From NCBI GenBank assembly GCA_041658955.1, contig JBAZZE010000002.1, forward strand, positions 12,505-76,504: a stretch of DNA of 64,000 nt. Direction: 5' to 3'. This DNA comes from Candidatus Shapirobacteria bacterium. GTDB taxonomy: Bacteria > Patescibacteriota > Microgenomatia > UBA12405. Of this stretch, positions 3,305-61,194 are shown in pieces. Below the pieces are notes generated by a model. That model saw nothing but the letters and a program-made list of their open reading frames with translations, was not told where the DNA came from and made no database searches. Positions within the stretch are counted from its first letter, which is position 1, and each line of letters starts with the position of its first letter. The position numbers were made by a program, and so were the translations under genes.

Positions 3305-4683
3305 TTAGAGACTTTTTTCTGGTTGAGGATTTGATAATAAAATCCCATCATGATCCAAAATAAATAGGCTGTTTTTGAGGCTTCAAAGACATCAATTAAG
3401 GTGGCATTGATCAGAAATGTAATCATGGCGGCAAAAAATAAAAGTGAGGGGCGGGAACGCACTTGATAAGTCCGGATTGTAAAATATAAAAATATCAACA
3501 TAAAAGTCACAAATCCAACTACACCACTCTCCCCCAAAAGCCGGAGATAATCGTTGTCGGTAGCCAAAGTGATCGAACCAAGTCCGGTTCCAAAAAGAAT
3601 ATTTTTCTTTAGGGCAGTAATGGCTCGAGGCCATTCGGCATTAAAACGAATTTCTCCAGATCGGGCAACGCCAACATCAGCATCGATGGGAATTTGTTCT
3701 TCGATTGGTCCTTTGCGAATAATAGTTGGTTTGGGAGTAACTTTGTTGATGACTGGAGAAACTACTGCGATAGGTCCTTTGGTAGGGGTGATTACAGCGA
3801 TGGGGGTTGGGGTAACCATAGGAGTGGTGACAAAGAACTGGTTTTTTAGGGCAGGAATAGTGGCGAGTAAGCGCTGATTAAGATCTTTGGAATTGACTAG
3901 GCTAAAGGCAAAAACAATAGTCACTGGGACAATCCAAAAATATTTACGAAGTAAGAAAATTGCTAGACACATGCCTCCGTAGAATGCGAAAATGGAGACT
4001 CGGGATGCGGTAAGGGTAAGAATTTGAAAAGAAAGAAGCCAGAGAATAATATTGGTGAGCCTTAGCCAAATGTTTTTTTGAGTGACAATGACTCCCCCAA
4101 TTAATACCAAAACAATACTTAGGAATGCTGCCAAATCGTAGTGACCAGCAAAGGTGGAACTGATGCGGGTCCAATTATCCATTTGCAGTAGTTGGCCTTT
4201 GCTAAATTCAGAATTCATGGTCGAAATAACTGGCAGACTAAAATATTTTTGGCCAAAACCATAAGCAATTACTCCTGCAGTTGCTAGAGCTAAGAAAGTA
4301 TAAAATTCCTTAAGATGTGGGTAATCTTTAGTAGTAGAAATGGTTAAAAAGAAAAGAGAAATGTATTCAAAACGGCGAAGTAAGTGGAGAAGGAGGATGT
4401 TTACCGGTTCTGTTTGGTTAATAAAGTAGGCATTAATAAAACTTATGACAATAGCGATAAGATATGCGGCAAATAGTTTGGTGATGGGTTCTTTGAGAAC
4501 TGGAAACTTATGGCGAAGTTGGTATATAAGCCAAAACAATAAAGAGATAGTGACGATGATATCGTCAAGACGAATAGCCACATAGGTTCCAGTCACTGAG
4601 GCTAGAGGAAATTTGGGATACAGAGGGATAAAGATAATCAGAACAGCAAGGATGGGACGTAGGAGAGAAAATCTTTTAAGCAC
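3301..4683 (-). CDS. O-antigen ligase/polymerase-like (Wzy_C domain) membrane protein with a Pro/Thr/Val-rich low-complexity loop
   Basis: 460 aa and polytopic. The C-terminal motif FGTGLGSITLATDNDYLRLLGESGVVGF matches the WaaL/Wzy_C signature (G.G.G...HN.YL...E.G..G) with D in place of H. Residues 283-326 (nt ~3705..3837) form a P/T/V-rich low-complexity segment. Confidence 0.6.
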   Translation of the reverse strand: MLKRFSLLRPILAVLIIFIPLYPKFPLASVTGTYVAIRLDDIIVTISLLFWLIYQLRHKFPVLKEPITKLFAAYLIAIVISFINAYFINQTEPVNILLLHLLRRFEYISLFFLTISTTKDYPHLKEFYTFLALATAGVIAYGFGQKYFSLPVISTMNSEFSKGQLLQMDNWTRISSTFAGHYDLAAFLSIVLVLIGGVIVTQKNIWLRLTNIILWLLSFQILTLTASRVSIFAFYGGMCLAIFLLRKYFWIVPVTIVFAFSLVNSKDLNQRLLATIPALKNQFFVTTPMVTPTPIAVITPTKGPIAVVSPVINKVTPKPTIIRKGPIEEQIPIDADVGVARSGEIRFNAEWPRAITALKKNILFGTGLGSITLATDNDYLRLLGESGVVGFVTFMLIFLYFTIRTYQVRSRPSLLFFAAMITFLINATLIDVFEASKTAYLFWIMMGFYYQILNQKKVSK

Positions 4684-6099: not shown

Positions 6100-6693
6100 T
6101 TATTGAAAGAGCATTACCCGTCCAAGATTGTAACTGGGTTTTTTAATACGTCGATCAGATATCTTTTTCGCAGGGACACCACCCCAGACTTCAAATGCAG
6201 GAACATCTTTGGTGACGACAGCTCCAGCGGCGATAACTGCCCCTTCGCCAATGGTGACGTTGGGAAGAATAATTGCCCGAGGTCCGACAAAAACATAATC
6301 TCCAATAGTTACTGGCCCAAAAGAATTGTCGTAAGTGTCGGAGTGGATGTCGTGTTCGTCATTGTAGATCATCACCTCAGAAGCGAGACTGCTGTGATTG
6401 CCGATGGTCAACGGAGCTCGACCATCAAGAAAACAACGACTACCGACGATAGAATCATGACCAATTTTGATACCACTGGGTTTAAAAAAATTGGCTCCAA
6501 GATGAATAGTCGAATCGAGTGGTAGATCCATGCCGGAAAGATTGTAGAAAAATTTTCGAATTAAGTGACTGGGGATATAACCAACTAGTCGGAGAATATA
6601 AAGCCAAAACTCTAAGCCAATAGTTATCAGCCGATTGATAGTTTTGGGGATAATGTTGCCCAAATTTACTTTTTGACCAACGTACTCATTCAT
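6100..6693 (-). CDS. Hexapeptide-repeat (LbH) sugar O-acetyltransferase, WcaF/NodL-like
   Basis: 197 aa. Tandem hexapeptide repeats (IGDYVFVGPRAIILPNVTIGEGAVIAAGAVVTKDVP) and the C-terminal WGGVPAKKI are typical of the WcaF/Lac/Mal acetyltransferase family. Confidence 0.8.
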   Translation of the reverse strand: MNEYVGQKVNLGNIIPKTINRLITIGLEFWLYILRLVGYIPSHLIRKFFYNLSGMDLPLDSTIHLGANFFKPSGIKIGHDSIVGSRCFLDGRAPLTIGNHSSLASEVMIYNDEHDIHSDTYDNSFGPVTIGDYVFVGPRAIILPNVTIGEGAVIAAGAVVTKDVPAFEVWGGVPAKKISDRRIKKPSYNLGRVMLFQ

Positions 6694-7812: not shown

Positions 7813-8955
7813 TTATGAATTAAATGTTTTGGTGTAGACCGACAAGGTTTCGGAGGCGGTCTTGGCCCAAGAAAATTTGGCTGCTTGACGATAACCTCGA
7901 TTAATAAGAGTTCTTCTAAGTGTGGGAGAATTGACAATATTGGTAATTGCTTCAGTTAATTCTTTGGTGCTAGTGGGATTGACTAACAGGGCCGCCTGTC
8001 CGGCAACTTCAGCCAGAGAAGATAGGTTGCTAGTAATAACGGGGGTACCGACTTTCATTGATTTGATAATTGGGAGGCCAAAACCTTCATAGGTACTGGG
8101 GTAAGCAAGGCACAAGGCACTAGCGTGTAAAGCCACCAAATCTTTTTCGGGAATATAACCCAGTACTTTGACTGAGTTGTCCCCTGGTGGCGAGACGTCA
8201 TCTCCCCAGCCGTATTTACCAGAGATAGCCAACTCTACTTTTGAGGTTGGATGAGCTCTTTTAAATTGAGTAAAGGCTTGGATAAGTCGGCTCAAATTTT
8301 TACGAGGTTCGCGAGTACCTTGAGTGAGGATGAAGTTAGAAAGACCGTATTGTTGGTGGATTTTAGCAATCTTTGATTGTCTTTCTTTGAGTGACAATTT
8401 GTGGAATAAGTCGAATTTTTTTTCGGCTGCTTCGTAAATAACGGAGATTTTATCGGCTTTAATTCCAGGAAAAATTCGAGTCAGATCATTTTTAGTACTC
8501 TGCGACACGCAGATAAAATGGAAACATTCGCGGACAGCATGGGAGAGTTTTTTCTTAAATGTAGCAATGGTTCGGGGGTGCTGATCTTCGGGAAACAAAA
8601 ATGGAACAAAGTCGTGAACCGTAGTTATGGTTTTGGCCCGAGTGGTGGGCGGATGAGTCCAGTCCCAAGTATGGAAAATATCACAACGACCAATAAACAT
8701 TTCGATGGGGAAGATATGAAGATCATTCCAGAGGTAGGATAAAAGTGTAGGCGGAAAATAGTGGCGGAAAATTTTAACGTTTTTGTACTTAGTGAGCTCT
8801 TGTATTTCGGCGGGCAGGGGTTGGCGAAGTGAGGAAAAGAAAAGCTTATATTGGTTTTTGTGATCGATCAAAACCAAATTACGGACCAGATTTGAAGTGT
8901 AATTACTGACTCCGGTGCCATAGGGAACTGCGGAAACATCAATACCGATAATCAT
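7813..8955 (-). CDS. GT4 family glycosyltransferase
   Basis: 380 aa with the motif PSTYEGFGLPIIKSMKVGTPVITSNLSSLAEV. Confidence 0.8.
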   Translation of the reverse strand: MIIGIDVSAVPYGTGVSNYTSNLVRNLVLIDHKNQYKLFFSSLRQPLPAEIQELTKYKNVKIFRHYFPPTLLSYLWNDLHIFPIEMFIGRCDIFHTWDWTHPPTTRAKTITTVHDFVPFLFPEDQHPRTIATFKKKLSHAVRECFHFICVSQSTKNDLTRIFPGIKADKISVIYEAAEKKFDLFHKLSLKERQSKIAKIHQQYGLSNFILTQGTREPRKNLSRLIQAFTQFKRAHPTSKVELAISGKYGWGDDVSPPGDNSVKVLGYIPEKDLVALHASALCLAYPSTYEGFGLPIIKSMKVGTPVITSNLSSLAEVAGQAALLVNPTSTKELTEAITNIVNSPTLRRTLINRGYRQAAKFSWAKTASETLSVYTKTFNS

Positions 8956-8958
8956 ATA

Positions 8959-9855
8959 TTATTTGTTAATTATAAGAGAAGAACGGATCAAATACGATAG
9001 ATTACGTAGCCTTTCGATCATGATTGATGGTAGGTTGGTGAGTATCTGCGATATTGAATAATTTTTTATAATTAATTTTATCCAGTTACGAAGAGTGTAG
9101 TACTGGCGAAGGGTACCCATGTTATTACTGGTACTTCCGCCCAAATGATAGGAAATGGCAGTAGGAATAAGCAAGCTTTGGTAATTATTTTTAGATAAGC
9201 GAAAAGCTAGGTCAACATCTTCAATATAGGCAAAAAAAGATTCATCAAACAAGCCGACTGTTTCTATGGCGGATTTTTGATAGACCACTACAGCGGCGGA
9301 GCTACCCCAAACAGGAATGTAGGGAGCTTTAAGATTGTCACCCCTCGACTTTGCTCGGGGTAAACTTTCTCGCAATGACGATTTGTAAGGTTGGCCGTTA
9401 TTTATATTTTCGCAACGTCCGGACATGAAGTATTTAAAACCTTGTGATTCTATTTTTGAGCCATCATAGGACAAGACTGTGCCACAAAATGTAGAATATT
9501 TAGGATTTTCAGTTATGGCTTTAGATATAAGCGAGAACCAATCGGGATTTAAGTTTAGGTCATTATTGAGTACACAGACGTAATCGTATTTAGACGTTCG
9601 TATCCCATCGTTGACTGCCTTGGCAAATCCAAAATTTGATCTTAAAGCTATCAGTTTAGAATTTTCCGGGAAAAATTTTTTAAATATTTCGGGACTGTTA
9701 TCGGTAGAACCATTATCAACTAAAATTATTTCAAATTTTGATTTTGGACAACTGAGAATAGCTTTGTGAAGTGTAACCAAACAGGGCTCAATAAACTTGG
9801 CGCCGTTAAAGTTGGGTATGACAATACTAAAATTGGGGGAGTTCGATTTTGTCAC
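8959..9855 (-). CDS. GT2 family glycosyltransferase
   Basis: 298 aa. FSIVIPNFNGAKFIEPCL...ILVDNGSTDNS. It is a paralog of the GT2 at 15396..16388. Confidence 0.8.
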   Translation of the reverse strand: MTKSNSPNFSIVIPNFNGAKFIEPCLVTLHKAILSCPKSKFEIILVDNGSTDNSPEIFKKFFPENSKLIALRSNFGFAKAVNDGIRTSKYDYVCVLNNDLNLNPDWFSLISKAITENPKYSTFCGTVLSYDGSKIESQGFKYFMSGRCENINNGQPYKSSLRESLPRAKSRGDNLKAPYIPVWGSSAAVVVYQKSAIETVGLFDESFFAYIEDVDLAFRLSKNNYQSLLIPTAISYHLGGSTSNNMGTLRQYYTLRNWIKLIIKNYSISQILTNLPSIMIERLRNLSYLIRSSLIINK

Positions 9856-28208: not shown

Positions 28209-29009
28209 TTAGACGTTGTCGGCGAATATCTTTTCGCGGGACTTGAAATAAGCTAGTCCTGTTAAAAGTGTAAAAATTGAAAGTATAAGCGCTATCGTCA
28301 GAGACAAATAGTTTGGCTCCCCTCCACCAAGGATTGTTTGGCGATAAGCATTAATTATCACTGCCATTGGGTTGAGTTGAAAAAGAAACTTATATCTCTC
28401 AGGTACGATATCCGCAGGGTAAATTATTGGGGTTAAGTACATCCAAAGCATTAAGACAAGGTTTAGTAAAAACTGAATATCACGATATAGGAGGTTGGCG
28501 GCAGCAAAAAATAAAGACAGACCCAATGTGAAGATTTGTTGAATTATAAAAATAGGAATTACCCAAAGAATATTGACATTAATAGGAATCTGGTAGGCAA
28601 TCATGTAGAACACGAGGATAGATAGGGCAAAGAGAAAATCAATTATCTTGGCTATGGTTGTGGCTAGAACTAATATAGTTCTAGGAAAATAGATTTTGGT
28701 GATTAAAGAGGCTGAGCTTACTAACGAACTGCATGAAAAAGAAAGAGAGTTGGAAAAAAGTGTCCAAGGTAGTAGCCCGACGAAGAGAAACACTGAATAA
28801 GGAATGTGTGAAGAAGCATTGGTGGGAATGCGCATGATGACAGAGAAGGCAAAAGACATAACCAACATCTGGGCTAAAGGATTGAGAATAACCCAAAAGT
28901 AGCCAAGAACTGACTGCTTGTAACGGGCCTTGACCTCACGACCAACCATCTGCCACAGAAGCTCCCGCCATTTTACGACCGCATGGAGTTCTTTTAGTAG
29001 AGACATCAC
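28209..29009 (-). CDS. wzm: ABC-2 type polysaccharide export permease (Wzm/TagG-like)
   Basis: 266 aa with 6 TM helices. N-terminal RELLWQMVGREVKARYKQSVLGYFWVILNPL is the ABC-2/Wzm signature. Confidence 0.85.
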   Translation of the reverse strand: MMSLLKELHAVVKWRELLWQMVGREVKARYKQSVLGYFWVILNPLAQMLVMSFAFSVIMRIPTNASSHIPYSVFLFVGLLPWTLFSNSLSFSCSSLVSSASLITKIYFPRTILVLATTIAKIIDFLFALSILVFYMIAYQIPINVNILWVIPIFIIQQIFTLGLSLFFAAANLLYRDIQFLLNLVLMLWMYLTPIIYPADIVPERYKFLFQLNPMAVIINAYRQTILGGGEPNYLSLTIALILSIFTLLTGLAYFKSREKIFADNV

Positions 29010-29149
29010 GAATCTATTATATACGTTAGAACGGTGATTGGGGGTGAATAGGCAGAGGTTTGAAGATTGCGCGTCACTGTCCGGTGCTTTGATCGGACCA
29101 TGTCGCTCCTCGCTATGACGTGGTGGTGATTGTAAGTTAAAATAGTGAC
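29010..29149. promoter_or_regulatory. Divergent intergenic control region (wzm to the left, SDR/CofD-like/TMTC/rSAM operon to the right) containing a GC-rich ~80-nt element
   Basis: This is the largest non-coding gap in the window at 140 bp. It is GC-rich relative to its surroundings, with TAAAAT 15 nt before the ATG at 29150. It contains the repeat described separately. Confidence 0.35.
29051..29123. repeat. Repeat copy A: GC-rich element GGCAGAGGTTTGAAGATTGC...CCATGTCGCTCCTCGCTATGACGTGG (homologous to 45912..45961)
   Basis: Direct by-eye alignment to copy B gives 19/20 identity over the first block and ~24/26 over the last block. Copy A carries a 27-nt insert containing a GTCCG...CGGAC hairpin. 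Confidence 0.7.
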
Positions 29150-30049
29150 ATGAATAAGAAAGTGGTGGTGGTTACTGGAGCAACTGGGAATATCGGCAAG
29201 GTGATGGTAAAAAAACTAATCGATAAGGGTTATCTGGTTCGAGCATTACTTCGTAAAGAATCGGAAAAACGTTGGAAAAATGAAAAAAATATCGAGATAT
29301 TACGAGGCGATATTAATGATGTAAAAGTTCTTAAAAAATTATTTGAGGGTGCTTATGGAATTATTCACTTGGCGGTAGAAATGGACTCGGCTTTGCCATG
29401 GAAAACTTTTAAGGACGTTAATATAGATAGTGTAAAAACTATTCTAGAAATTGCGCCAAAAACTAGTCGCCTACTATTGGCTTCGAGCGTGGTGGTTTAT
29501 AAAGATACTGGTAAAGAAGCTCGGGACGAAACGTGGGATCTGAAAACTACTGGTGGAGTGGATAAATATATTCGATCAAAACTTTTGGCCCTGAAAATGA
29601 CTCGTAAATCGAAAAGAAAAGTAATTACGGTCATGCCTAGTACAGTCATTGACCATGAAATTTTTGGGAGAGAACAACTGGTGAGTAACAATCCTCTAAT
29701 AAAATGGTTGTGGAACAATGTGGGTGGTGGGATCCCGGGTGGCCTGATGGCGGCTGTGGGTGATCGGAGCCGGATAATGAATTTTGTGGAAGTAAAGGAT
29801 GTATCTGAAGGAATAATCCTCGCTTTAGAAAAAGGAAAAATGGGTGAAGAATACATTCTTTCCGGGGAAAGTCTTACCACTGGAGAATACCTTAAAGAAA
29901 TGTCTAAACGTTGTGGAAAAAGTTATCTAAAGATTCAAATACCCAAATTCTTTTTAAGATTATTTGGAATAGGACAAGTGGTGAATATGAATTTTTCGTA
30001 TAAAAAAGCCCAAAAAGAGTTAGGTTATACTCCTAAATGGAAACTATGA
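29150..30049 (+). CDS. NAD(P)-dependent epimerase/dehydratase family protein (extended SDR, NmrA-like)
   Basis: 299 aa with an N-terminal VVVTGATGNIGKVMVKKLIDKGYLVRALLR Rossmann motif. Confidence 0.65.
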   Translation: MNKKVVVVTGATGNIGKVMVKKLIDKGYLVRALLRKESEKRWKNEKNIEILRGDINDVKVLKKLFEGAYGIIHLAVEMDSALPWKTFKDVNIDSVKTILEIAPKTSRLLLASSVVVYKDTGKEARDETWDLKTTGGVDKYIRSKLLALKMTRKSKRKVITVMPSTVIDHEIFGREQLVSNNPLIKWLWNNVGGGIPGGLMAAVGDRSRIMNFVEVKDVSEGIILALEKGKMGEEYILSGESLTTGEYLKEMSKRCGKSYLKIQIPKFFLRLFGIGQVVNMNFSYKKAQKELGYTPKWKL

Positions 30050-44259: not shown

Positions 44260-44983
44260 AAAGGCTATTGATTGGTGTCTTTTGAACCAACTTATAGCCT
44301 AATTTTAACAGATATTGATGGAGTGAGAGACTGGACTGCGTTTCGACACAAATTACCTTGGGATGATACTTATTCCAATTGTTACTTTTGAGAACTGTTA
44401 GGTCATGACCTTCGGTATCTATACTAAGTAGGTCAAAATTATCGCTATTTGATAAATGTTTATCAAGGACAGCCGATAAAGACGAAACTTTTATATTGGG
44501 GGTACTAACTAAAATAGAATTATTTTTTAAGTTATGTTGATATTGTTTTTCCGAAAAGGTGGAATTAACATCAGGAAACATTTGATAAAATTTTAGAAGT
44601 CCGGAACTGTCAGATATGCCAATGTTAAGGTTGATATCACGATCTCTTTTTTGTTTATAAAGCGAGAGGAGTTGGGGGTTTGGTTCGATATTTATACCCT
44701 GACTCCCGTGTAGATAGAAAAAGTAGGTGTTGTTAAATTTTTGAGGATGATTGGCACCGATATCAACGTAGAATATTTTTTTAGAATTTAAAAGTTTTTT
44801 GATAATCAGATCCTCATTGTATTGAGAGTAGGATTTTTGGAGAAATTCATAAAATATTTTGCGATAAAGGAACTGGAGTGTAAGTTTGATTGTCCAATAA
44901 AATCCGTAGATACGGAATTTAGTTAGTAGCTGCCTTACTAACGAGAGGGAAGTCTCGGAGTTTTTTGAGGTATTTAATGGCAT
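44213..44983 (-). CDS. FkbM family methyltransferase
   Basis: 256 aa. QYNEDLIIKKL...FYVDIGANHPQKFNNTYFF matches the FkbM consensus (GED..l...vvDvGAn.G). Confidence 0.65.
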   Translation of the reverse strand: MPLNTSKNSETSLSLVRQLLTKFRIYGFYWTIKLTLQFLYRKIFYEFLQKSYSQYNEDLIIKKLLNSKKIFYVDIGANHPQKFNNTYFFYLHGSQGINIEPNPQLLSLYKQKRDRDINLNIGISDSSGLLKFYQMFPDVNSTFSEKQYQHNLKNNSILVSTPNIKVSSLSAVLDKHLSNSDNFDLLSIDTEGHDLTVLKSNNWNKYHPKVICVETQSSLSLHQYLLKLGYKLVQKTPINSLYVQKNSSLLSLPTTL

Positions 44984-46484
44984 AGGTAAATAGATGCTTG
45001 ATATCGTCTAAAGAGCGGATAGACAAGACTTTACGAATTAGAAAACGAGGAGTGAGAATGCCATGGAAGAGACTCTGGACGAGTTCTAACTGTTCATTGT
45101 CGGATAGAGGTGACTTCATTATGGGATGGCGCATGTCGTATTCATTCCAGTCCTCAGTTTTTAACCAATTGTTGTCTTGGCATTGCTTGAATAATGGGGT
45201 ACCAGGATAAGGGACTACAATAGTTGCTTGCATACTGTCGGCTAGACCATCACGGAAAAGACTACGAGCCTCTTCAAGGGTATTAAGGGCATCTTGGCGA
45301 GTTTCCCAAGGGTAGCCGATCATAATGGTCAAATGTGGTTCTAAACCGGCTTTTTTGGCCATGATCAGTGTTTTGCGTGAGTCTTCTACTTTGGTGTTTT
45401 TGACAATCATGTCGAGGGTTTTTTGGTTACTTGATTCAAGTCCATAAAGAATAAACCTAAAACCAGCTTTGCCCATGAGGTCATATTGTTCTTGGTTGAG
45501 GGCCCCAAAGCGCATATTACAGCCCATGACAACTTTTTTGTGAAGTCCCCTCTTGATCATCTCGTTACAAAAGTCGCGCAGCCAAGGCCCGATAGGTAAC
45601 GTCCCGGCATCGTCAAAAATTTCTCGAATACCAAGTGAGGCCATATATTCGATTTCATCAACCGTGTGTTTGACTGAAAAATTACGAAAATTATTGCCTG
45701 GGAAAATACTAATCCAAGAACAAAAAGTACATTTACCCCACCAACAATCTCGTCCAGTCATCAAATAAGCGCCGGGGTGGTATTTGAAATTGGTATTGTC
45801 ATTGCCGTAGAGTTTCCAATTGGTGAGCTCTCGGTTGATGGGAGGAAGAGTGTCTAGATTGTGATGTTTTAGGGCAAATTTGCCAGTATTAACTATTACC
45901 CGTTTGGATTTGGCAGAGGTTTTAAGATTGCCACGTCGCTTCGCTCCTCGCAATGACGTGGGTTCTTCCTTTGACCAAAAAAAGAATCCTGGCTCGAGTT
46001 TTGTACCATTTACTAAATGTTCGACTAAATTCATCGTCATAAAATCGTAGTCGCCACCGGTAATGACATAATCTACTGGCGAATTTTTGAGTGATTCTTC
46101 GGGCATTGCGGTGACATGGTCACCGAATAGAACAACTTTTAGATTCCACTTATTGTCCTTAGAAGCGGCTGATTTTAAGTCTTTGATAATAGCCCAGTGT
46201 CGTTTGATGGTGGGAGTCTTGGATTCGATGGCCACAAGTGATGGCCGCCATTTTTTAATTCGAGCCAACCACTTTTGATAAGATATTTTTTCAGCAATAG
46301 CGTCATCCCAATAGACTTTGTATCCCAGATTGTGAAGTGCAGAGGCACCATAAGCCGGAATAACTGGCAAAATTACATTGCCGGTGTTGGTCCACTGAAA
46401 TTGGCGGTTTTGAGCTAGAAAGGGAATACCTTTGTCGGTTTCCAATGGTGGGTAAGAAATGGCAATTGAAAAGCTCTTTTTCAT
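44919..46484 (-). CDS. Cobalamin-binding radical SAM protein, paralog 5, with a CX4CX2C motif and an internal basic insert homologous to the intergenic element at 29.05 kb
   Basis: 521 aa. The Cys cluster GRDCWWGKCTFC is at 45720..45746. Residues ~173-193 (EEPTSLRGAKRRGNLKTSAKS) are encoded by repeat copy B. Confidence 0.7.
   Translation of the reverse strand: MKKSFSIAISYPPLETDKGIPFLAQNRQFQWTNTGNVILPVIPAYGASALHNLGYKVYWDDAIAEKISYQKWLARIKKWRPSLVAIESKTPTIKRHWAIIKDLKSAASKDNKWNLKVVLFGDHVTAMPEESLKNSPVDYVITGGDYDFMTMNLVEHLVNGTKLEPGFFFWSKEEPTSLRGAKRRGNLKTSAKSKRVIVNTGKFALKHHNLDTLPPINRELTNWKLYGNDNTNFKYHPGAYLMTGRDCWWGKCTFCSWISIFPGNNFRNFSVKHTVDEIEYMASLGIREIFDDAGTLPIGPWLRDFCNEMIKRGLHKKVVMGCNMRFGALNQEQYDLMGKAGFRFILYGLESSNQKTLDMIVKNTKVEDSRKTLIMAKKAGLEPHLTIMIGYPWETRQDALNTLEEARSLFRDGLADSMQATIVVPYPGTPLFKQCQDNNWLKTEDWNEYDMRHPIMKSPLSDNEQLELVQSLFHGILTPRFLIRKVLSIRSLDDIKHLFTYAIKYLKKLRDFPLVSKAATN
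45912..45961. repeat. Repeat copy B (inside the rSAM paralog 5 CDS): GGCAGAGGTTTTAAGATTGCCACGTCGCTTCGCTCCTCGCAATGACGTGG
   Basis: It is homologous to 29051..29123 in the same + strand orientation. It contains the inverted pairs CCACGTC/GACGTGG and ATTGC/GCAAT. Confidence 0.7.
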
Positions 46485-49443: not shown

Positions 49444-50356
49444 TAGTTATTTTTTGATTGGTAGAGGTGAGTTCAAAATATTTTACATAAGCTAAGGGGA
49501 AGCGAAGTGAAGAATACCAAGAAAAGACAAAACCGGAAAAACCGTCAAGTATTCCTTTGTGACGAATGTAAGTAAGCAAAAACCACCAAATTGGTTTGAC
49601 TAAAAAGTAATTCAAAAATGAAAGAAAAGATAGGGGAATTTTCTTTTCCTGAAGTTCGGTGGCAATGTTTGAGGTATAACGGTTGTTTCTCAGAAGATAT
49701 CTAGAAAAAGTAGGATCGGCAAAATGTAAAAGATCGGAACTAAGCCAACCTACCCGCCCATCGGTTTGAATTTGTTCATGAACATCTTTAGCTGGTTGTC
49801 GGCTCAAACTTTTTCTAAAAAGACGAATTTGACCATCAGGATAGACCCCACCATAGCGGATGAATTTACCGAGAAAATAATTGAGACGAGGTACAAAAAA
49901 GGCAGTGTATTCGTTCGAAAGTGAGCCGTATTGGCCATCTCGAGCCTGAAGAATTTGTTGATGCCGTAAAAATAAAGGATGAGAGTTTAATACTGAGTTT
50001 GATTGTTCGGTCATTTTTTCCGAACTAAGAGAAAGTAATTTTTGAATTTCTTTTGATAACTCTTGACTGACTGCTTCATCAGCATCAAGCAATAACACCC
50101 AATCATGCTTACATTCATCTATCGCCATTTGCTTGTTGATATGAAAGTTTGGTTTGTTGGTGGTCGATATGATCCTAACAAAGGGATATTTTTTGGCTAG
50201 GGTAACGGTGTTGTCTGCTGACTGGCCATCAACAATGATGATTTCACTGGCTAAACCTTCTATGCTTTTTAGACAACGATCGATATTGGCCGACTCGTTG
50301 TAAGTGGCAATGGCAACTGAAAGTGGAGTATTATTTTTCATAGATTCTAAACCCAA
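49424..50356 (-). CDS. GT2 family glycosyltransferase (WaaE/KdtX-like)
   Basis: 310 aa. LSVAIATYNESANIDRCLKSI...IIVDGQSADNT...LLLDADE. Confidence 0.75.
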   Translation of the reverse strand: MGLESMKNNTPLSVAIATYNESANIDRCLKSIEGLASEIIIVDGQSADNTVTLAKKYPFVRIISTTNKPNFHINKQMAIDECKHDWVLLLDADEAVSQELSKEIQKLLSLSSEKMTEQSNSVLNSHPLFLRHQQILQARDGQYGSLSNEYTAFFVPRLNYFLGKFIRYGGVYPDGQIRLFRKSLSRQPAKDVHEQIQTDGRVGWLSSDLLHFADPTFSRYLLRNNRYTSNIATELQEKKIPLSFLSFLNYFLVKPIWWFLLTYIRHKGILDGFSGFVFSWYSSLRFPLAYVKYFELTSTNQKITIGKDWD

Positions 50357-51935
50357 TAGTACCTCCGGGAAGAACTAATGAAGCGATAGGTACTGCCTTG
50401 ATCTCTTCATCCCCAGCGATAACTAAACTTTTGGCCGGGATGGAATCCCAGTTGATTTTACCAAAATTGAGGTTATCAATCTTCTCTACGGTAGAAAAAC
50501 CGTATTTATCAGGTGGGGTGAGTTGAATTTGAGGTTGTATTTTTTGGGGAGGATATTTAGTAAAAAATAAATACAAAATGTAGGGTTGGTCGTAGGTTGA
50601 AGTAAAGTAGATCTGATCATATTTTGATTTTTGACTATCAATAAAGGGCATTAGTGAAGAAAAACCAGTGTTCCAAGCATATGGGTATCGTTGAGGAGCA
50701 TGGACAAAATAAGCATCGACAAAATAAAAAATCGAGAATATATAGAGAACAGTAATAATAAAGAAATTGTGTGGTCGATATGACTTGGTCAAATCGATAA
50801 TTCCAAATAATCCTGCACCTATGAATATTGATAAAGGAATAACCATGGGTAAGGCTCGGAGGGCTGATGGTGCTTGAAAAGTTAGCGAAGAAGCCAACGG
50901 AGATATGAAGAGTAGGGACAGAGAGAGAAGGGCTAGTTTTTTAGTGTTTTGATTTTTGAGTAAATAGATTATTCCAATAATTAATAGAGGTAGCTCGATA
51001 AGATGTAGCTGTCCCATATCTGGAGACTTGGATCGAGGTACTTCATCACCTTTTAGAAATAAGAAATTTAAATCAAAATGGGAGACGTATTTTTGAGCCC
51101 AAGAGATAGTATAGAGGACCCGTTTATTATGCATAATTCGGTTGGAAAGTAGTGTATTGCCATGTTGATTAAGTAGTTCTTCAGAACGAGCAATTGGACC
51201 ATAGTCAGCGGTGAGGCCGACACCGCCAAATCGTGCAGCTCCACCACTACTCAAAAAAGAAACTAGGACTGGGACAGCAATAACTGCGGCAAAAAGAAAT
51301 GGAAAAATAATTGACTTAAAGTGGGAAATTAGGAATTTAAAATTAGTGGTAAATAGGAATAAGCAAATTAAAGGGGCGACAATTCTAGCTGAGTGATAGA
51401 CATAAAGAGAAGCGACAAAAGATATTAGCGAAAACAGAAAATATTTTGTCTTGGCCGAATAAATGTATTTATAAAACAGATAAATCCCATAAGTCATAAA
51501 GAACAGAGCAACTGATGATTCCCAGGCGCCACGACTAAAGTGAATATGCCATGGAGAGACACTTAAAATAAATGCACTGGACAAAGCAAGCGGATGCGAC
51601 GTAGATAATAAAAGTACGAGTTGATAAAAGATGTATATAGTTGCTAAAGATAGGATTACATTGGGAAGACGAACTGCCAATGGAGTTAGTCCGATGGCTT
51701 TTATAAATGGCATAGCCAGATAAACATAACCACCTGGTTTATAGTCCCCAAAGGAACGAAAGTGTAGAGGCCAACTGATGCCATGTTCATCCTTGCCAGT
51801 CTGTAATAAGGAATAAGCATTGTAACCAAGGGCAGCTTCATCAGGGTTTAGAGCGGGAAGAGTATCTATGCGGTAGATTCTCAATACAAGCGCTAATAGT
51901 AATACCAATATTAAAAATATTTTAGTTAGTTTCAT
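50331..51935 (-). CDS. PMT_2/ArnT-like GT-C membrane glycosyltransferase (polyprenol-phosphate-sugar dependent), tandem paralog
   Basis: 534 aa. The first-loop motif LPALNPDEAALGYNAYSLLQTGKDEHG...FRSFGDYKPGGYVY carries the DE...Y hallmark of GT39/GT83/PMT_2. There are about 11 TM helices and a C-terminal soluble domain. Confidence 0.75.
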   Translation of the reverse strand: MKLTKIFLILVLLLALVLRIYRIDTLPALNPDEAALGYNAYSLLQTGKDEHGISWPLHFRSFGDYKPGGYVYLAMPFIKAIGLTPLAVRLPNVILSLATIYIFYQLVLLLSTSHPLALSSAFILSVSPWHIHFSRGAWESSVALFFMTYGIYLFYKYIYSAKTKYFLFSLISFVASLYVYHSARIVAPLICLFLFTTNFKFLISHFKSIIFPFLFAAVIAVPVLVSFLSSGGAARFGGVGLTADYGPIARSEELLNQHGNTLLSNRIMHNKRVLYTISWAQKYVSHFDLNFLFLKGDEVPRSKSPDMGQLHLIELPLLIIGIIYLLKNQNTKKLALLSLSLLFISPLASSLTFQAPSALRALPMVIPLSIFIGAGLFGIIDLTKSYRPHNFFIITVLYIFSIFYFVDAYFVHAPQRYPYAWNTGFSSLMPFIDSQKSKYDQIYFTSTYDQPYILYLFFTKYPPQKIQPQIQLTPPDKYGFSTVEKIDNLNFGKINWDSIPAKSLVIAGDEEIKAVPIASLVLPGGTIGFRIYEK

Positions 51936-53532
51936 AAGCGTAAAAAGTAGAAGTATTATTGATAGGGCTGAGTGGAGTTAGGGTTTTTAGGTCAATCCCC
52001 TGTCTGATGGCATCATCATAGGAAAGGATTAAGACTTGTTTTGGTTGAGTCTTTTGAAAGCTAAAACTGGGTACTTCAAACTTAATATTGTCAATTTTTG
52101 AAATTTTTCCAGTATCTTTGCCATCAACTGTAAGAGATGCTTGTGCTTGATAATCCCTGGGTGGATATTTTGAGTAAAAAAGATAATAGATATATGGTTG
52201 ACCGTAGAAATCGGTAAAAGTGACTTGTTTGTCTTTACCATGATCGATGACATATTTGGCAGCTTCTTGATAACCGTAGAGTAAATGAGCCGGAGAAACT
52301 TTGGTCATGTGATGGTAATAAAGGTCTTGATAGTAAATAAAAGAGACTAGGTAAGCAGAAAAAATGGTGATGGGTATAAGAATGCTTTTAATTTTGTTGA
52401 AAGTAAAAATAATTCCTTTGGCAGCAAAATACATTAGAGGAATAGAAAGTGACAAGGTTCTAACGGGTTGAATGCTATCTTTTGTAAGTGCCCCGGGAAG
52501 TGGCCCAATAATTAGCCAGAGTAGAAAAATAAAATCTGGCTTTTTGAGGGAAGAGACAAGAGTAGAAAAAATTCCCAAGATAACAAATATAATTGAAGGA
52601 TAGAGAATAACTCCAATATATGGAGCTGAGTGTCGTTGAATTTGCCAGTCACCTTCAAATATTAAAAACTTTGGAGAAAAATGATTAAAGTAACGAGTAA
52701 GGAAATTTTGAACAAAAAAGATGGCTTCGTTATGGAAAATGTTGTAGTTTAGTTGATTACTCTCACCTATAATTTGCCGGGTGTCATTGGTAGGTCGATG
52801 ATAATTCCAAAGGGCGTAGACACTCAGCCGGTTGGCATCATTTTGGGTAACTAGTCCGTAAATAATTGGGAGTGAAAGCAAAATAAGGGGAAGGGCAAGA
52901 CGAAGAATGTTTTTGAATGATTTGAATACAGAAAGATGGGTAAAAAAAAGTATTGATAATAAAAGCGGGGTCATTATTTTGCCACCTTGGTAGGTATAAA
53001 ACGTTAAACCGAAAATGAGCGAAGACCAGATTAGTTTTTGATTTACAAAAAGTAAGGTAGCCAGCGCTAATTCGAATAAAAGGACATTGGTTTCCCAGGC
53101 ACCACGGCTAAAGTGAATATTCCACGGGTTAAATGAAATGAGAAGAGCAGTAATTAAAGCTAGTTGCTTAGATTTTGGACTAAGTTTTAGAATTAAAAGA
53201 TAAATAAGAAGTGGTAGAAGAGAGCCGAGAATAATCGAAGGGAGTCTAACTGAAAGTGGATTTAGACCAAAAATAGCGACAAAAGGAATGGTAAGGTAGA
53301 CGTATAAACCAGGTTTGTAGTCTCCAAAGGATTTGAAAACTAATGGTAGAGTAGCGCCATATTCATCTTTACCTGTTTCCAAAATGGAATAGGCATTGTA
53401 ACCGAGTGAGGCTTCATCCCAAAGTAGTGGAGGATAGCTTGAATTGAAGAGCCTTACTCCTAGAGCTAAAACAGTGATGAGAATAATGGCAAATCTATTC
53501 ATAGCTGATGATATCAAACGCGGGTGAGCCAT
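51922..53532 (-). CDS. PMT_2/ArnT-like GT-C membrane glycosyltransferase, tandem paralog
   Basis: 536 aa. PPLLWDEASLGYNAYSILETGKDEYG...FKSFGDYKPGLYVY. Confidence 0.75.
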   Translation of the reverse strand: MAHPRLISSAMNRFAIILITVLALGVRLFNSSYPPLLWDEASLGYNAYSILETGKDEYGATLPLVFKSFGDYKPGLYVYLTIPFVAIFGLNPLSVRLPSIILGSLLPLLIYLLILKLSPKSKQLALITALLISFNPWNIHFSRGAWETNVLLFELALATLLFVNQKLIWSSLIFGLTFYTYQGGKIMTPLLLSILFFTHLSVFKSFKNILRLALPLILLSLPIIYGLVTQNDANRLSVYALWNYHRPTNDTRQIIGESNQLNYNIFHNEAIFFVQNFLTRYFNHFSPKFLIFEGDWQIQRHSAPYIGVILYPSIIFVILGIFSTLVSSLKKPDFIFLLWLIIGPLPGALTKDSIQPVRTLSLSIPLMYFAAKGIIFTFNKIKSILIPITIFSAYLVSFIYYQDLYYHHMTKVSPAHLLYGYQEAAKYVIDHGKDKQVTFTDFYGQPYIYYLFYSKYPPRDYQAQASLTVDGKDTGKISKIDNIKFEVPSFSFQKTQPKQVLILSYDDAIRQGIDLKTLTPLSPINNTSTFYAYETN

Positions 53533-55072
53533 CGAGAAAGTTAATGGTTTTAATTACTTTTGAACTTTCTGTTGGGTAATTTTGGGGACTGGATATTAGA
53601 AGAGTGTTTTTGGGAAATTTCATGTCTTTGATTTCCCAATCATTTTTAAATTCAAATTTGTCAAAAGCGTCAACCCAATACCAATCAGAATGAAAGTTGG
53701 TGGATAACTTGGGATCGTTTTGATAAGTGGATGGACTGATTGGCCAATAAAATAGAAAAAACTCATGTGGTTCACCATACTTTTTGGTAACAATAATTCG
53801 ATCATATATAGAATAATTTTCCTTTGCAATATCGATTGCTTGTTGGTAGCCAAATTGCCAGGCAGAAGAATATTTTTGATTGTAACTAAGATATTTTGAC
53901 CAATAAAAAAGGAAAAATATAAAGATGGTAACTATGATCAGCCGATAATCAATTTTTATTTTTGAGATACCGATAGTTATAAAAAGAATATAAAAAATTA
54001 GACCGGTACTGGAACGAAGAACAGGAAAATCACCAACGGTTAGAGCTGCTGGTAATAAAGTAACGAGAAGGATAGGAATTAGATAAAAATACCGACCATC
54101 ATTTAATGAAAATAAAAGACCGATATACAAAAATGGCATCAGGATTAAAAAGATAATCCCAGTTTGGGGTACAGAAAGTTGCTGATTTTGAGTGCCATTT
54201 ATAAACAAGGGAAAGGGGTTAAATTGGTTTAAATAATTTATAGACAAAGTTTGAAAAAAGTAGACAGGGCGATTGTTTATTAGTCGATTGATGAATTGTG
54301 GACCAGTAAATGAATTTCGCTTGAGGTTAATAAGATTCACAGCATTGGGATTTATAATGCCCACCCAACGATTGCGAGCAAATGATGTTGGCGAGAAAAG
54401 ATTGATCAAGTTGGGAATTACTAATATTGATAAAACTATCAGAGCGGGGGCTATTTTTTTGGTGATTTTAAAGGGATGAAAATAATATAAAACCGGAAGA
54501 AGTAAGGGAACGATAATCCGAGTATTGTGATAGGCATACATGGATAGTCCCAGAAAAACACTAGAGTATAGAAGGTTAAGGGAACGGTTTTTATCGAGAA
54601 TAAAGTGATAAACACCCATTAACAAAAGAGTTTGGGAAAAGGTGGATTGAAACACCCCGCGAGAAGGAAAAAATGCCCAAGGTAAAAAAGCCGCTAATGT
54701 CATAGCGATTAGGGCAAGGTGTTCCTTTTTAAATAAAAGTTTGGCGAAAAGGTATGTATAAACTACAAAAATTAATGAAAAAATGACAGTTGGTAGACGA
54801 ATACTTAAGGCATTGAGGCCCAAAAGTTTGATAAAAGGGATGGTGAGATAAAGGTTGAAAGTAGTCGGATAGTCACCGTATGCTCGGAAGTTAAAAATAG
54901 GGAAAGCAGTCCCCCACTGATCACGGCCTGTTTCTAAAATAGAATAAGCGTTGTAGCCATGGGAGATTTCGTCCCAATTTAATCCCGTGGGAAGAGAATC
55001 TATTTTCCATAAACGGAAAAAGGTTGCTAGAAATAGAATTATCCAGAAAAATGTTTTATGATTTAGCTTCAC
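53495..55072 (-). CDS. PMT_2/ArnT-like GT-C membrane glycosyltransferase, tandem paralog
   Basis: 525 aa. LPTGLNWDEISHGYNAYSILETGRDQWG. Confidence 0.7.
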   Translation of the reverse strand: MKLNHKTFFWIILFLATFFRLWKIDSLPTGLNWDEISHGYNAYSILETGRDQWGTAFPIFNFRAYGDYPTTFNLYLTIPFIKLLGLNALSIRLPTVIFSLIFVVYTYLFAKLLFKKEHLALIAMTLAAFLPWAFFPSRGVFQSTFSQTLLLMGVYHFILDKNRSLNLLYSSVFLGLSMYAYHNTRIIVPLLLPVLYYFHPFKITKKIAPALIVLSILVIPNLINLFSPTSFARNRWVGIINPNAVNLINLKRNSFTGPQFINRLINNRPVYFFQTLSINYLNQFNPFPLFINGTQNQQLSVPQTGIIFLILMPFLYIGLLFSLNDGRYFYLIPILLVTLLPAALTVGDFPVLRSSTGLIFYILFITIGISKIKIDYRLIIVTIFIFFLFYWSKYLSYNQKYSSAWQFGYQQAIDIAKENYSIYDRIIVTKKYGEPHEFFLFYWPISPSTYQNDPKLSTNFHSDWYWVDAFDKFEFKNDWEIKDMKFPKNTLLISSPQNYPTESSKVIKTINFLDGSPAFDIISYE

Positions 55073-56639
55073 GATATAGTTTGATTATATATAAAAACAC
55101 TCCAATTAGGCTGAGAATGTTGGCAAAGGAGCGGATAGGAGTGTTTTTGAATTGTAATAAATATTGGTAGTGACCTGCTGGTAATTCAAAGCTAATTTGA
55201 CCGTATTTTGGGTCAATTTGGTAATTTGTTTTTTGATTATTAACAGACAATTCCCAGTTTGGAAAATAAGTCACTGGAAGGATGATGTTGGCACTAGGAG
55301 TATCAACAGTAAGCTCACCACTGATTTGATGGCTGTTTTTGGTAAATAAAATGTTGGTTATTTGGCCAGTGATAGTGTTTGCCTGGGTGGGAGCCATTAT
55401 TTCTGGGAATGAAGTGGTGGAACGAGGCCAATAATCTTTTAAACCGGCTCCACTTTGGCGATAAATTTCCTGGGTAGTTAGTTTTTGACCATCGGTAAGG
55501 GTGGGGTACCAAATATCTTCTTTGAAGTAATTAATATTTAACCCAATGGTTAGGAAAATGATTATTAATAATAAAAATTTGTTTTTGGTAACGATTCCAG
55601 AAATAAAAGAAAAACAAAATACGACAAGTCCCAAAAAGCGCCAAGGAAATTGATAGTAAGGCATAAAAGAAAGAATCTGCCAGATAAAAGTAGATCGGTT
55701 ATGAGTTAAAAAAGTCGCAAAAAGTCCGATGCCAAAAAAAGTAAATATAGTTTTTTTGAAAGATGAACGGATGGCAATTAAAAGGGCAATAAGGGGAAGT
55801 ACCCAATGAACAATACCTATCTGAAGAGAAAGATCATCAACAGGTCCCCAAAGCGAGGCGCCGTAACCCCAAAAACGAGAAATAAATAATTGGTTGATAG
55901 TGGCAAAGTGAATAATGTAGTTGAAGTAGCCTTGAGTCATGCTACTGACAGTAGTAAGATTTTTTTCAAAAAAAGCCGGAATAATGAAAAAAGCAGATAA
56001 CAAGATTGAATAAATCGAGTTTTGAATAAGGTAACGAGTATTTTTATGAATAATAGAAAATATTAAAAGTACTGGAAGAAAATAGACTAGAGTGAGGTTG
56101 TGACTTAAGAGAAGGGCGGTGAGAGAAATAATAAAAAGATTGGTTCGTTTTTTATATAAGGAATACATGATAAGTGGTAAGAGGTTGATGGCCCAGTGTT
56201 CGGCTAGAGCACCTCTGACAAAGCTATCTAAGGAATGATATGGAGCAAAAGTATAAAGAACACTACTGACAAGTCCGCCAACTGGGCCAAAGAATGAGGA
56301 AGAAAGTAAATACATGCCAAGTGAGCCGATAAAAAAGGGAATAATGAATGAAATCTTCAGGCTATCAATCAGGGATAATCCGGCGAGATGAAAACTCTCA
56401 GCAAATGCGTAAGGTAGAGGGGAATAAAAGTTAAAAAGTGGGTAGGTGTATCCGAAACCTCCGTCGGGAATCAAACGACAGGGAATTTGACGGTCAAGAA
56501 CACACTGGTGAAATTGAGCCAGTCGGAAAACATGCATATCATCTTGCATACTAAAGTAGCCAGGGCGCCATAAACGATGTGAGGCAAGTAGAGCAAAAAG
56601 AAGAGGAATAATGATGATTAGTTTAAATTTTTTGATCAT
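55056..56639 (-). CDS. YfhO-like polytopic membrane protein (GT-C fold candidate)
   Basis: 527 aa. The N-terminus HRLWRPGYFSMQDDMHVFRLAQFHQ resembles the YfhO N-terminal DD..FH..R motif. There are at least 12 TM helices and a C-terminal soluble domain. Confidence 0.4.
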   Translation of the reverse strand: MIKKFKLIIIIPLLFALLASHRLWRPGYFSMQDDMHVFRLAQFHQCVLDRQIPCRLIPDGGFGYTYPLFNFYSPLPYAFAESFHLAGLSLIDSLKISFIIPFFIGSLGMYLLSSSFFGPVGGLVSSVLYTFAPYHSLDSFVRGALAEHWAINLLPLIMYSLYKKRTNLFIISLTALLLSHNLTLVYFLPVLLIFSIIHKNTRYLIQNSIYSILLSAFFIIPAFFEKNLTTVSSMTQGYFNYIIHFATINQLFISRFWGYGASLWGPVDDLSLQIGIVHWVLPLIALLIAIRSSFKKTIFTFFGIGLFATFLTHNRSTFIWQILSFMPYYQFPWRFLGLVVFCFSFISGIVTKNKFLLLIIIFLTIGLNINYFKEDIWYPTLTDGQKLTTQEIYRQSGAGLKDYWPRSTTSFPEIMAPTQANTITGQITNILFTKNSHQISGELTVDTPSANIILPVTYFPNWELSVNNQKTNYQIDPKYGQISFELPAGHYQYLLQFKNTPIRSFANILSLIGVFLYIIKLYREAKS

Positions 56640-61193: not shown

Positions 61194-61194
61194 G

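Follow-up and report, generated by a model that had tools for sequence, protein, structure and literature searches.

The 64-kb stretch of DNA considered here (the whole stretch that was analysed, referred to below as the window) originates from Candidatus Shapirobacteria (Microgenomates/Patescibacteria), a bacterium of the candidate phyla radiation (CPR) and, to our knowledge, of a lineage known only from metagenomes. It harbors three copies, A, B, and C, of a short sequence that are very probably units of a non-autonomous, hairpin-forming dispersed repeat of the repetitive extragenic palindrome (REP) type. Copy A occupies a divergent spacer of 140 bp between an ABC-2 permease gene (28209-29009, minus strand) and an SDR/epimerase gene (29150-30049, plus strand); copies B and C reside within the coding sequences of a B12-binding-domain radical SAM protein and a family-2 glycosyltransferase (GT2), respectively. 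The units, their parts, and their host genes are located as follows.

29051..29123, minus strand: copy A, an intergenic singleton unit, CCA-CGTC-ATAGCGAG...GCAATCTTCAAACCTCTGCC (nhmmer E=4e-9)
29117-29120: CGTC tag of copy A (GACG on the plus strand)
29079..29098, minus strand: apical stem-loop of copy A, GTCCG / 10-nt loop / CGGAC
29051-29070: subfamily tail of copy A
45912..45961, minus strand: copy B, an in-frame unit in the radical SAM gene, CCA-CGTC-ATTGCGAG-GAGCGAAGCGAC-GTGGCAAT-CTTAAAACCTCTGCC (nhmmer E=6e-15)
45955-45958: CGTC tag of copy B (GACG on the plus strand)
44919..46484, minus strand: host gene of copy B, encoding a B12-binding-domain radical SAM protein of 521 aa
9328..9380, minus strand: copy C, a unit in the GT2 gene, CGTCATTGCGAG-AAAGTTTACCCCGAGCAAAGTCGAGGGGTG-ACAATCTTAAA (nhmmer E=4.5e-7)
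9377-9380: CGTC tag of copy C (GACG on the plus strand)
8959..9855, minus strand: host gene of copy C, encoding a family-2 glycosyltransferase of 298 aa with element-encoded residues 159-177

An nhmmer profile built from all Shapirobacteria units found, which is also the source of the unit E-values, detects only these three units in the window, and all of them are singletons without an inverted partner. The initial annotation had described A and B as a duplicated segment whose similarity goes beyond chance, and both statements are borne out. Direct reading and local alignment of the plus strand place copy A at 29051-29123 and copy B at 45912-45961, with a common left arm, GGCAGAGGTTT(G/T)AAGATTGC, that is identical at 19/20 positions and a common right arm, (G/T)TCGCTCCTCGC(T/A)ATGACGTGG, that is identical at 20/22. 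For either arm, the window contains exactly two occurrences even when up to three mismatches are allowed, and dinucleotide-preserving shuffles yield 0.01 and 0.00 expected chance matches to the two arms. Between the 20-nt arm and CCTCGC, copy A measures 37 nt and copy B 14 nt. The G+C content of the element is 57.5% as compared to 36.8% for the window, and the two copies are separated by 16.8 kb within one gene cluster. An assembly chimera was considered and rejected: the identical gene including the insert is present in an independent assembly from ENA (L001), and copy B is therefore no assembly artefact. While two copies had been recognized correctly, a third, copy C, had been overlooked; it was found by a loose scan for the conserved core in a region that reads TTTAAGATTGTCACCCCTCGACTTTGCTCGGGGTAAACTTTCTCGCAATGACG.

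Copy B encodes residues 173-189 of the radical SAM protein, a basic segment of 17 residues (EEPTSLRGAKRRGNLKT). This segment is missing from the orthologs P0002-P0004, which share 92-97% amino acid identity, and the DNA of the nearest ortholog (L002, 91.7% nucleotide identity) is shorter by exactly 51 nt, corresponding to 17 codons. Among the orthologs in which the loop can be located, 98/104 contain no such insert at all; the alternative that the segment constitutes a conserved motif of this radical SAM subfamily is thereby removed. Six of the 104 (P0001, P0008, P0022, P0041, P0048, and P0051) do carry an insert, with a different interior in each. Apart from P0001, the inserts in the radical SAM loop read as follows.

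P0008: TSLRVHRGGRSNP
P0022: SLREKTMSLREKPTSLRAQRSNL
P0041: TSLRGVRHGGRRGNL
P0048: TSLRANSTSLRAKRSNL
P0051: SLRAPCLPAGRKRSNQ

At the DNA level, the inserts of P0008 and P0022 are genuine units that start with CGTCATTGCGAG (with one TGTC head) and end with GCAATC. The radical SAM loop in the genome of P0022 (L133, 6742-6827) comprises three tandem CGTCATTGCGAG heads, one of them TGTC-tagged, followed by a single tail; at 4089-4124 of L133, a further in-frame unit is found within a GT4 glycosyltransferase gene (3376-4488; …DTSLRAKRSNLLN…). In an AlphaFold model of the radical SAM protein (mean pLDDT 73, pTM 0.78), the insert at 173-189 lies in a coil with pLDDT <50 (residues 174-192) between the predicted strands 167-172 and 195-199, and the predicted insertion site coincides with the junction of a B12-binding-like domain and the radical SAM core. 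Judged from the comparison of orthologous sequences, copy B is a recent, in-frame, and stop-free insertion of 51 nt.

Copy C encodes a segment of 19 residues (...SSLRESLPRAKSRGDNLKA...) that takes the place of an ancestral ~LTKVLK; a GT2 ortholog with 92% identity (P0122/L131) displays the ancestral ...FLTKVLKLKSS... instead. The unit, whose 3′ basal side is ACAAT, represents a net gain of 33 nt, again in frame and stop-free. CT(T)AAAGCTC at its junction is also present in the empty site, and some 18 nt of the host have been replaced rather than merely interrupted. In a second genome (L130, contig Ga0172379_10001902), the GT2 site is occupied by a unit with the same ends and a different interior. 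This interior, TGGTCCGGTCAAAGCACCGGACA, and the apical stem-loop of copy A are one and the same module. Since the same stem-loop thus recurs at another site, what the initial annotation regarded as an indel, a 27-nt hairpin insert of copy A, turns out to be the apical stem-loop of a different subfamily. In the GT2 ortholog P0151, the loop between the NINN and WGSS motifs contains yet another insert (…LSQPEADQPLAEKEGAGGG…), which looks as if it were encoded by a different GC-rich repeat family.

Read 5′ to 3′ on the minus strand, a unit is composed of a CGTC tag, a 5-bp basal stem (ATTGC...GCAAT) directly after the tag, a small internal loop, a variable G+C-rich apical stem, and a tail beginning with C(T/C), of which CT is fixed by the scan pattern. 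The family can accordingly be written as CGTC-ATTGCGAG-(variable GC hairpin)-GCAATC(T); the basal arm of copy A, ATAGC, has one mismatch to the family ATTGC. The apical stem measures 4-9 bp and mostly carries a 3-nt GNA loop, and the interior ranges from 10 to 40 nt. The basal stem forms in 84/130 minimum-free-energy folds, and the units fold better than interior-shuffled controls, with a mean z of -1.5. For the window copies alone, z-scores of only -0.6 to -1.7 are obtained, which is too weak for a structural claim from single copies and makes an analysis at the level of the family necessary. Among 21 distinct 36-nt units, the apical stem covaries: 86% of its cells are paired, compared to 74% after shuffling and 24-48% when the partners are slid, and 29 double-sided changes are observed against 11 +/- 2.4 in controls; in reading these values it has to be borne in mind that the structure was derived from the same sequences and that the search pattern itself prescribes the basal stem. 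The CGTC tag is unpaired in the majority fold of units with a GC-rich apical stem. A short subtype, which includes copy B with GCGAAGC in its centre, is centred on GCGNAGC with all four bases occurring at N. The DNA heptamer d(GCGAAGC) is an unusually stable mini-hairpin, and the centre of the short subtype is this motif, which would fit a role in single-stranded DNA. An inverted partner within ~60 nt, with the tags pointing outward, accompanies 88/138 units in genome loci (64%). No Rfam match was obtained in the window at gathering thresholds, nor on the elements of eight element-rich loci at E<=1, and a tRNA or tmRNA origin was rejected, as ARAGORN found neither in the window.

The question of whether A and B belong to a dispersed repeat family is answered by units at unrelated loci, in related genomes, and in distant bacteria. 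A collection containing one genome per species was scanned with the pattern AGATTGC-N10-40-CTCGCAATGACG, which yielded at least 120 genome stretches; as the CGTC tag is part of this query, the matches provide no independent evidence for the tag. About 20 bacterial phyla are represented among the matches listed. These include Pseudomonadota of all classes (with Rickettsia, Tisiphia, Coxiellaceae, and Neisseriaceae), Bacteroidota, Chloroflexota, several classes of Patescibacteria, Bacillota, Planctomycetota, Actinomycetota, Omnitrophota, Zixibacteria, Armatimonadota, Atribacterota, Fibrobacterota, Margulisiibacteriota, Melainabacteria, and others; the Rickettsia and Tisiphia units reside in endosymbiont genomes (L045, L060). 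In viral contigs, 113 stretches match the family pattern, some of them as tandem clusters. One such contig (L156, IMGVR_UViG_3300010330_000057) exhibits nine units at 6430-6600 and 8598-8760, among them tandem arrays with a period of 46 nt beside an inverted dimer. The 34-nt core of copy B together with 4 flanking nt is found unchanged in a Bacteroidales genome from buffalo gut (L087). In this metagenome-assembled genome, the unit at 4019-4052 (reverse-complement numbering) lies in a 38-nt stretch, AGATTGCCACGTCGCTTCGCTCCTCGCAATGACGTGGG, that equals window copy B across different phyla.

Such matches bear on the proposal that A and B are the fossil of an ancestral rearrangement or segmental duplication joining the promoter region of the SDR operon to the radical SAM gene. 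A pair of similar segments within one gene cluster, separated by 16.8 kb, would suit an event of this kind, but the homology ends at the ends of the element, its presence varies among close relatives (the insert is missing from orthologs at 92-97% identity), and identical or near-identical units occur at unrelated loci in unrelated phyla, as exemplified by the core shared with L087. A rearrangement fossil is therefore extremely improbable, and the similarity of A and B reflects the common descent of repeat units rather than a functional coupling of the SDR operon to radical SAM paralog 5, the host gene of copy B. Of the three readings offered in the initial annotation, it is the miniature mobile or recombinogenic element inserted in frame that has stood up: the closest orthologs lack exactly this segment, the family is dispersed, and other units sit in the same loop. 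Neither the rearrangement just discussed nor an antisense link, considered below, is supported.

In Shapirobacteria, about 14 full units were found in 159 kb of DNA, or about one per 10 kb, including the 3 in the window. Six of the ~12 occupied Shapirobacteria sites are intragenic. Every Shapirobacteria unit starts with CGTC, except for one TGTC head in L133. In this lineage, the tail is extended to CTTNAAACCTCTGCC, with a lineage-specific ending ...GCAATCTTNAAACCTCTGCC, and this extension is the reason why A and B look so much alike. The units of a cluster in the related genome L138 and those at three unrelated sites (copy A, copy B, and L129) start with GGCAGAGGTT(T/A)NAAGATTGC, and a unit behind the ABC-2 gene in L136 ends with ...CAATCTTTGGACCTCTGCC. 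Since the arm is present in every L138 unit as well as at unrelated sites, it constitutes a tail extension of the element and does not belong to the host; the candidate explanation that the left arm GGCAGAGGTTTNAAG is host sequence (the empty allele L002 has TTAGAG there) was rejected on these grounds. A scan of metagenomes with the 20-mer of this arm produced six matches, two of which are real (both in one related Shapirobacteria sample) and four of which are chance matches in coding DNA of high G+C content. All six intragenic Shapirobacteria units are read in one frame, T-S-L-R...(R)(S/G)-N-L, and encode hydrophilic basic peptides; with the CTTAAA tail, 3/6 frames are open. A universal preference for the SLR frame was considered and rejected, as units in long open frames of the pan-bacterial sample use all frames and the bias is specific to Shapirobacteria. 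What this bias suggests is either selection acting on the encoded peptide in this lineage or a directional mechanism.

The spacer harboring copy A displays comparable variability. The orthologous sites upstream of the SDR gene in related genomes, and the promoter-like sequence of the window, are occupied as follows.

L128: one unit with another interior and identical flanks
L135: a single unit
L138: two to three units in a tandem cluster
L136 (GCA_016188545.1): element-free
Window, 29115..29143, plus strand: promoter-like site of the SDR operon (consensus match only)

Upstream of the orthologous SDR gene, the L138 cluster (200-375) is made up of head-to-tail units, all of which start with GGCAGAGGTT(T/A)AAAGATTGC, and of a partial head. 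The element-free spacer of L136 (2880-3000) contains about six copies of a short (A/T)TAGA(A/G)C motif (GTTAGAACGATAGAACGTTAGAGCTATAGAAC...), and the window retains one GTTAGAACG directly to the left of copy A. For the SDR protein of the window (29150-30049), the best protein-search match is 91%, with none at 100%; the radical SAM and GT2 proteins of the window were matched at 100%. In the promoter-like site, it is the CGTC end of copy A that provides the -35-like hexamer ATGACG, and a -10-like box of the host, TAAAAT, follows at 29138-29143 after a 17-nt spacer, 7 nt before the ATG at 29150. A TAAAAT this close to the SDR start codon suggests a leaderless or nearly leaderless mRNA.

The initial annotation had assigned copy A to the likely 5′ untranslated region or promoter of the SDR operon and had proposed, as one possibility, that plus-strand RNA of copy A pairs in trans with the mRNA of radical SAM paralog 5 over the two arms, thereby coupling the two halves of the radical SAM cluster. 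An unconstrained duplex between this hypothetical RNA and the paralog 5 mRNA does reach -81 kcal/mol, as opposed to -47 +/- 5 for shuffles. However, the mRNA of the unrelated GT2 gene could pair likewise (-64 kcal/mol), a by-product to be expected of any pair of units located on one DNA strand. The sole promoter-like site on the plus strand has its -10 box downstream of copy A, which would put copy A upstream of the transcription start and not in the untranslated region; as the upstream neighbour gene, moreover, is on the other strand, no plus-strand transcript over copy A is expected. In addition, the closest relatives are devoid of copy B altogether, and the orthologous copy A site contains other interiors or no unit, so that the pairing partners are not co-conserved. 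Regulation by trans-antisense pairing is thus very unlikely.

The same spacer has to be considered with regard to a use of the units by the host, in which copy A would supply the -35 box of the SDR operon and the basic peptide of copy B would serve as a functional linker of the enzyme. ATGACG precedes TAAAAT by exactly 17 nt in the window, L135, and L138, a unit has been kept at the SDR-upstream site in 4/5 relatives, and the single frame of all intragenic units with their hydrophilic basic peptides points in the same direction. Yet the constant spacing may be due either to an element supplying the -35 box or, equally, to one inherited ancestral junction; L128 has kept the site with a degenerate right arm and without ATGACG at 17 nt; and L136, which has no element, retains the -10 box. 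For copy B, the insert region is predicted to be disordered and most orthologs do without it. Host use of this kind is accordingly regarded as quite unlikely.

Among known repeat systems, the closest counterparts of the present family are found among the REPs, which have been sorted into a GTAG-tagged and a CGTC-tagged superfamily (Di Nocera, De Gregorio & Rocco 2013, BMC Genomics 14:522; PMC3733652). As described in that survey, CGTC REPs carry an unpaired CGTC tag (with TGTC and CCTC variants), a stem of 8-9 bp whose first pairs are A-T, a loop of 4-5 nt, and a short unpaired tail with the consensus CCA; they mostly form inverted dimers, and no dedicated transposase is reported for them (PMC3733652). 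The present family shares with them the terminal CGTC tag with its TGTC variant, a stem starting with A-T followed by T-A, a tail starting with C, and outward-tagged inverted dimers such as those of the peptides in Additional file 3 of the survey. Likewise, it occurs in several phyla, shows no transposase gene flanked by its units in the window or recurrently at the 120 sampled loci, and comprises intragenic units that add 8-30 residues, in line with the survey's account of CGTC REPs. Several differences exist, however. The tail is CT, extended in Shapirobacteria, instead of CCA, and the host range covers about 20 phyla including Patescibacteria among the matches listed, whereas the survey reports CGTC REPs from five phyla, with Patescibacteria not among them (PMC3733652). 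The CGTC REPs described include Neisseria dRS3 and Rickettsia RPE-6 (both CGTC-1) as well as RPE-4 (CGTC-4), which are intragenic in Rickettsia, and the intragenic peptides published for four CGTC families are VIPAKAGI/SFPRKRES, VILDGRNIEF, VIAGLDPAIH/DARVKPGHD, and VIPWLDHGI (PMC3733652). In contrast, the units considered here encode SLRGAKRSNL/VIASEAKQS/...LLAMT, and none of SLRG, SLRA, HCE, VIAS, and LAMT appears in the published CGTC peptide table (PMC3733652). Judged from these encoded peptides, by which, and not by consensus sequences, it is set apart, the repeat is a further family of the CGTC-tagged REP kind beyond CGTC-1 to CGTC-4.

The two intragenic copies invite a second comparison. 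By analogy, copies B and C behave like Rickettsia-type coding palindromes. Rickettsia palindromic elements (RPE-1 and others) were reportedly found by Ogata et al. in 2000 to be inserted in frame in protein-coding genes; RPE-1 is about 100-150 bp long and restricted to Rickettsia. In common with these elements, the present units are palindromic, lie in frame in conserved genes of a small genome, are absent from orthologs, occur in intergenic regions as well, and extend the protein by a short hydrophilic stretch in a position that the fold can accommodate. They differ in that RPE-1 is longer and confined to Rickettsia, whereas the host here is a member of the Patescibacteria (CPR). The peptides of RPE-6 and RPE-4, the two Rickettsia elements to which the sequence comparison extends, differ from those of the present family. 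REP/REPIN-RAYT systems, in which GTAG-tagged REPs are mobilised by a domesticated Y1/HUH transposase, are made up of lineage-specific families that are vertically inherited. The combination of tag and hairpin, the inverted doublets, the non-autonomous nature, and a presumed single-stranded DNA substrate are common to both; the tag here, however, is CGTC rather than GTAG, and the family is nearly identical across phyla. Bacterial MITEs (transposable elements of the miniature inverted-repeat type) such as Correia and Nezha are likewise small, non-autonomous, and dispersed, and as with the present units they are occasionally found in frame within genes. In contrast to MITEs, the units are only 30-75 nt in size, have no long terminal inverted repeats, and show no target-site duplication at the two sites for which an empty allele is available (L002 and L131); on comparison with these alleles, a MITE with target-site duplication was rejected. 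Searches of the literature for the nucleotide strings and encoded peptides of the family retrieved unrelated primers only, and the RepRanger paper makes no mention of the family.

How the units spread is best approached from their distribution. Units are gained or lost between close relatives, and the same sites, namely the radical SAM loop, the GT2 site, and the SDR-upstream site, are re-used with exchanged interiors. In the mechanism favored here, the units would propagate in the form of hairpins of single-stranded DNA, and what moves them would be either a trans-acting HUH/Y1 transposase, like the one put forward for GTAG REPs, or recombination of the copy-choice or microhomology kind. Purifying selection would then remove those intragenic insertions that are not a multiple of three, not free of stops, or not situated in a tolerant surface loop, and in a small, gene-dense genome such a filter would leave a high share of the survivors inside genes and in one frame. 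With respect to a mobilising enzyme, all-against-all clustering of 1,867 open reading frames (ORFs) within 1.5 kb of 120 sampled loci did not reveal a recurrent linked gene, the best cluster reaching 5/120 loci, and neither in the window nor as a recurrent neighbour of these loci was a RAYT or Y1/HUH transposase found. No transposase Pfam family was detected among the 55 ORFs of the window (the 25 commonest families in a scan of the whole set, 30 ORFs individually, and four ORFs without a Pfam match), and the same scans found no reverse transcriptase family there. A template-repeat/variable-repeat pair of a diversity-generating retroelement was rejected, as A and B differ by G/T, T/C, and T/A exchanges and in length, where such a pair would differ at template adenines.

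A rival account dispenses with transposition altogether: units would be created and replaced by gene conversion, by copy-choice or template switching at hairpins, or by microhomology-mediated repair, and the occupied sites would be hot spots. This account concerns only the mode of spread and not the identity of the element. It is favored by unrelated interiors at one and the same site in different genomes (the SDR-upstream site in the window, L128, L135, and L138, the GT2 site in the window and L130, and the radical SAM loop), by the tandem cluster in L138, and by the failure to find target-site duplications or a linked transposase; for CGTC REPs, too, the literature reports no dedicated transposase (PMC3733652). 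The CT(T)AAAGCTC shared at the junction of copy C and the replacement of host sequence there likewise favor a recombinational component, although the microhomology is short and lies in low-complexity sequence. Recombination alone, however, explains neither the first arrival of units at new sites inside conserved genes nor their near-identity across phyla. As the sole mode of spread it is possible but doubtful.

Several points weigh against the assignment to an REP-type repeat or limit its reach. The hairpin is bipartite, with an invariant basal stem of 5 bp, a variable apical stem, and a 3-nt loop, and does not conform to the stem and loop dimensions of CGTC REPs. The minimum-free-energy fold of the short subtype has CGTC paired with an internal GACG, copy B forming a 7-bp stem CCACGTC/GACGTGG, so that the tag is not necessarily unpaired. 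Neither the window nor the recurrent neighbours of the 120 loci revealed a mobilising enzyme. Both host loops, in the radical SAM and the GT2 protein, are hypervariable, which blurs the exact insertion boundaries and any target motif, so that the boundaries cannot be fixed. Insertions are read from the comparison of occupied and empty alleles, no excision or insertion event having been witnessed directly, and the recurrent occupation of a loop could result from one old insertion followed by many losses instead of repeated gains. The one frame shared by the six intragenic Shapirobacteria units fits selection and could also indicate a directional mechanism. Finally, the whole-genome copy number is an extrapolation from the 159 kb of Shapirobacteria DNA.

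The identity of the 34-nt core in Shapirobacteria and Bacteroidales, together with the presence of units in viral contigs, has led to a more far-reaching suggestion. According to this suggestion, the units would form one still-active pan-bacterial family of single-stranded DNA hairpin elements which has no transposase of its own and is moved by a very common function, such as an HUH protein carried by phages or an enzyme of core replication or repair. Such a scenario is unlikely. If it were true, the mobilising function would also work in CPR genomes of roughly 1 Mb, the repeated insertions into the same loop would reflect a real target preference, and the insertion polymorphism between strains that are 92-97% identical, in a genome of fewer than 1,000 genes, would allow the mobilising activity to be identified for the first time.

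With respect to the genomic setting, nearly all of the window from 636 to 58231 is one glycan-synthesis island. It encodes about 20 GT2/GT4 glycosyltransferases, five NDP-sugar epimerases/dehydratases, and five B12-radical SAM paralogs, together with a CofD-like gene and a TPR/PMT_2 protein, and five PMT-like paralogs follow one another at 50331-58231. For the four ORFs at 58264-62986, Pfam gives no match.

For this gene cluster, the assignment of A and B to a repeat family removes the regulatory story attached to the resemblance of the SDR-operon spacer to radical SAM paralog 5 and replaces it by shared repeat ancestry. For annotation, it implies that the 17-residue segment of the radical SAM protein and the 19-residue segment of the GT2 protein are repeat-encoded and are unfit to serve as family motifs or to be included in alignments, models, and phylogenies. 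Patescibacteria, which are not one of the five phyla reported in the 2013 survey (PMC3733652), possess REP-like units of the CGTC type, and these have varied recently. As in Rickettsia, a high share of the surviving units in Patescibacteria is intragenic. As to how CGTC REPs spread when they have no transposase of their own, small CPR genomes in which units are polymorphic for presence and absence narrow the candidates to a short list.

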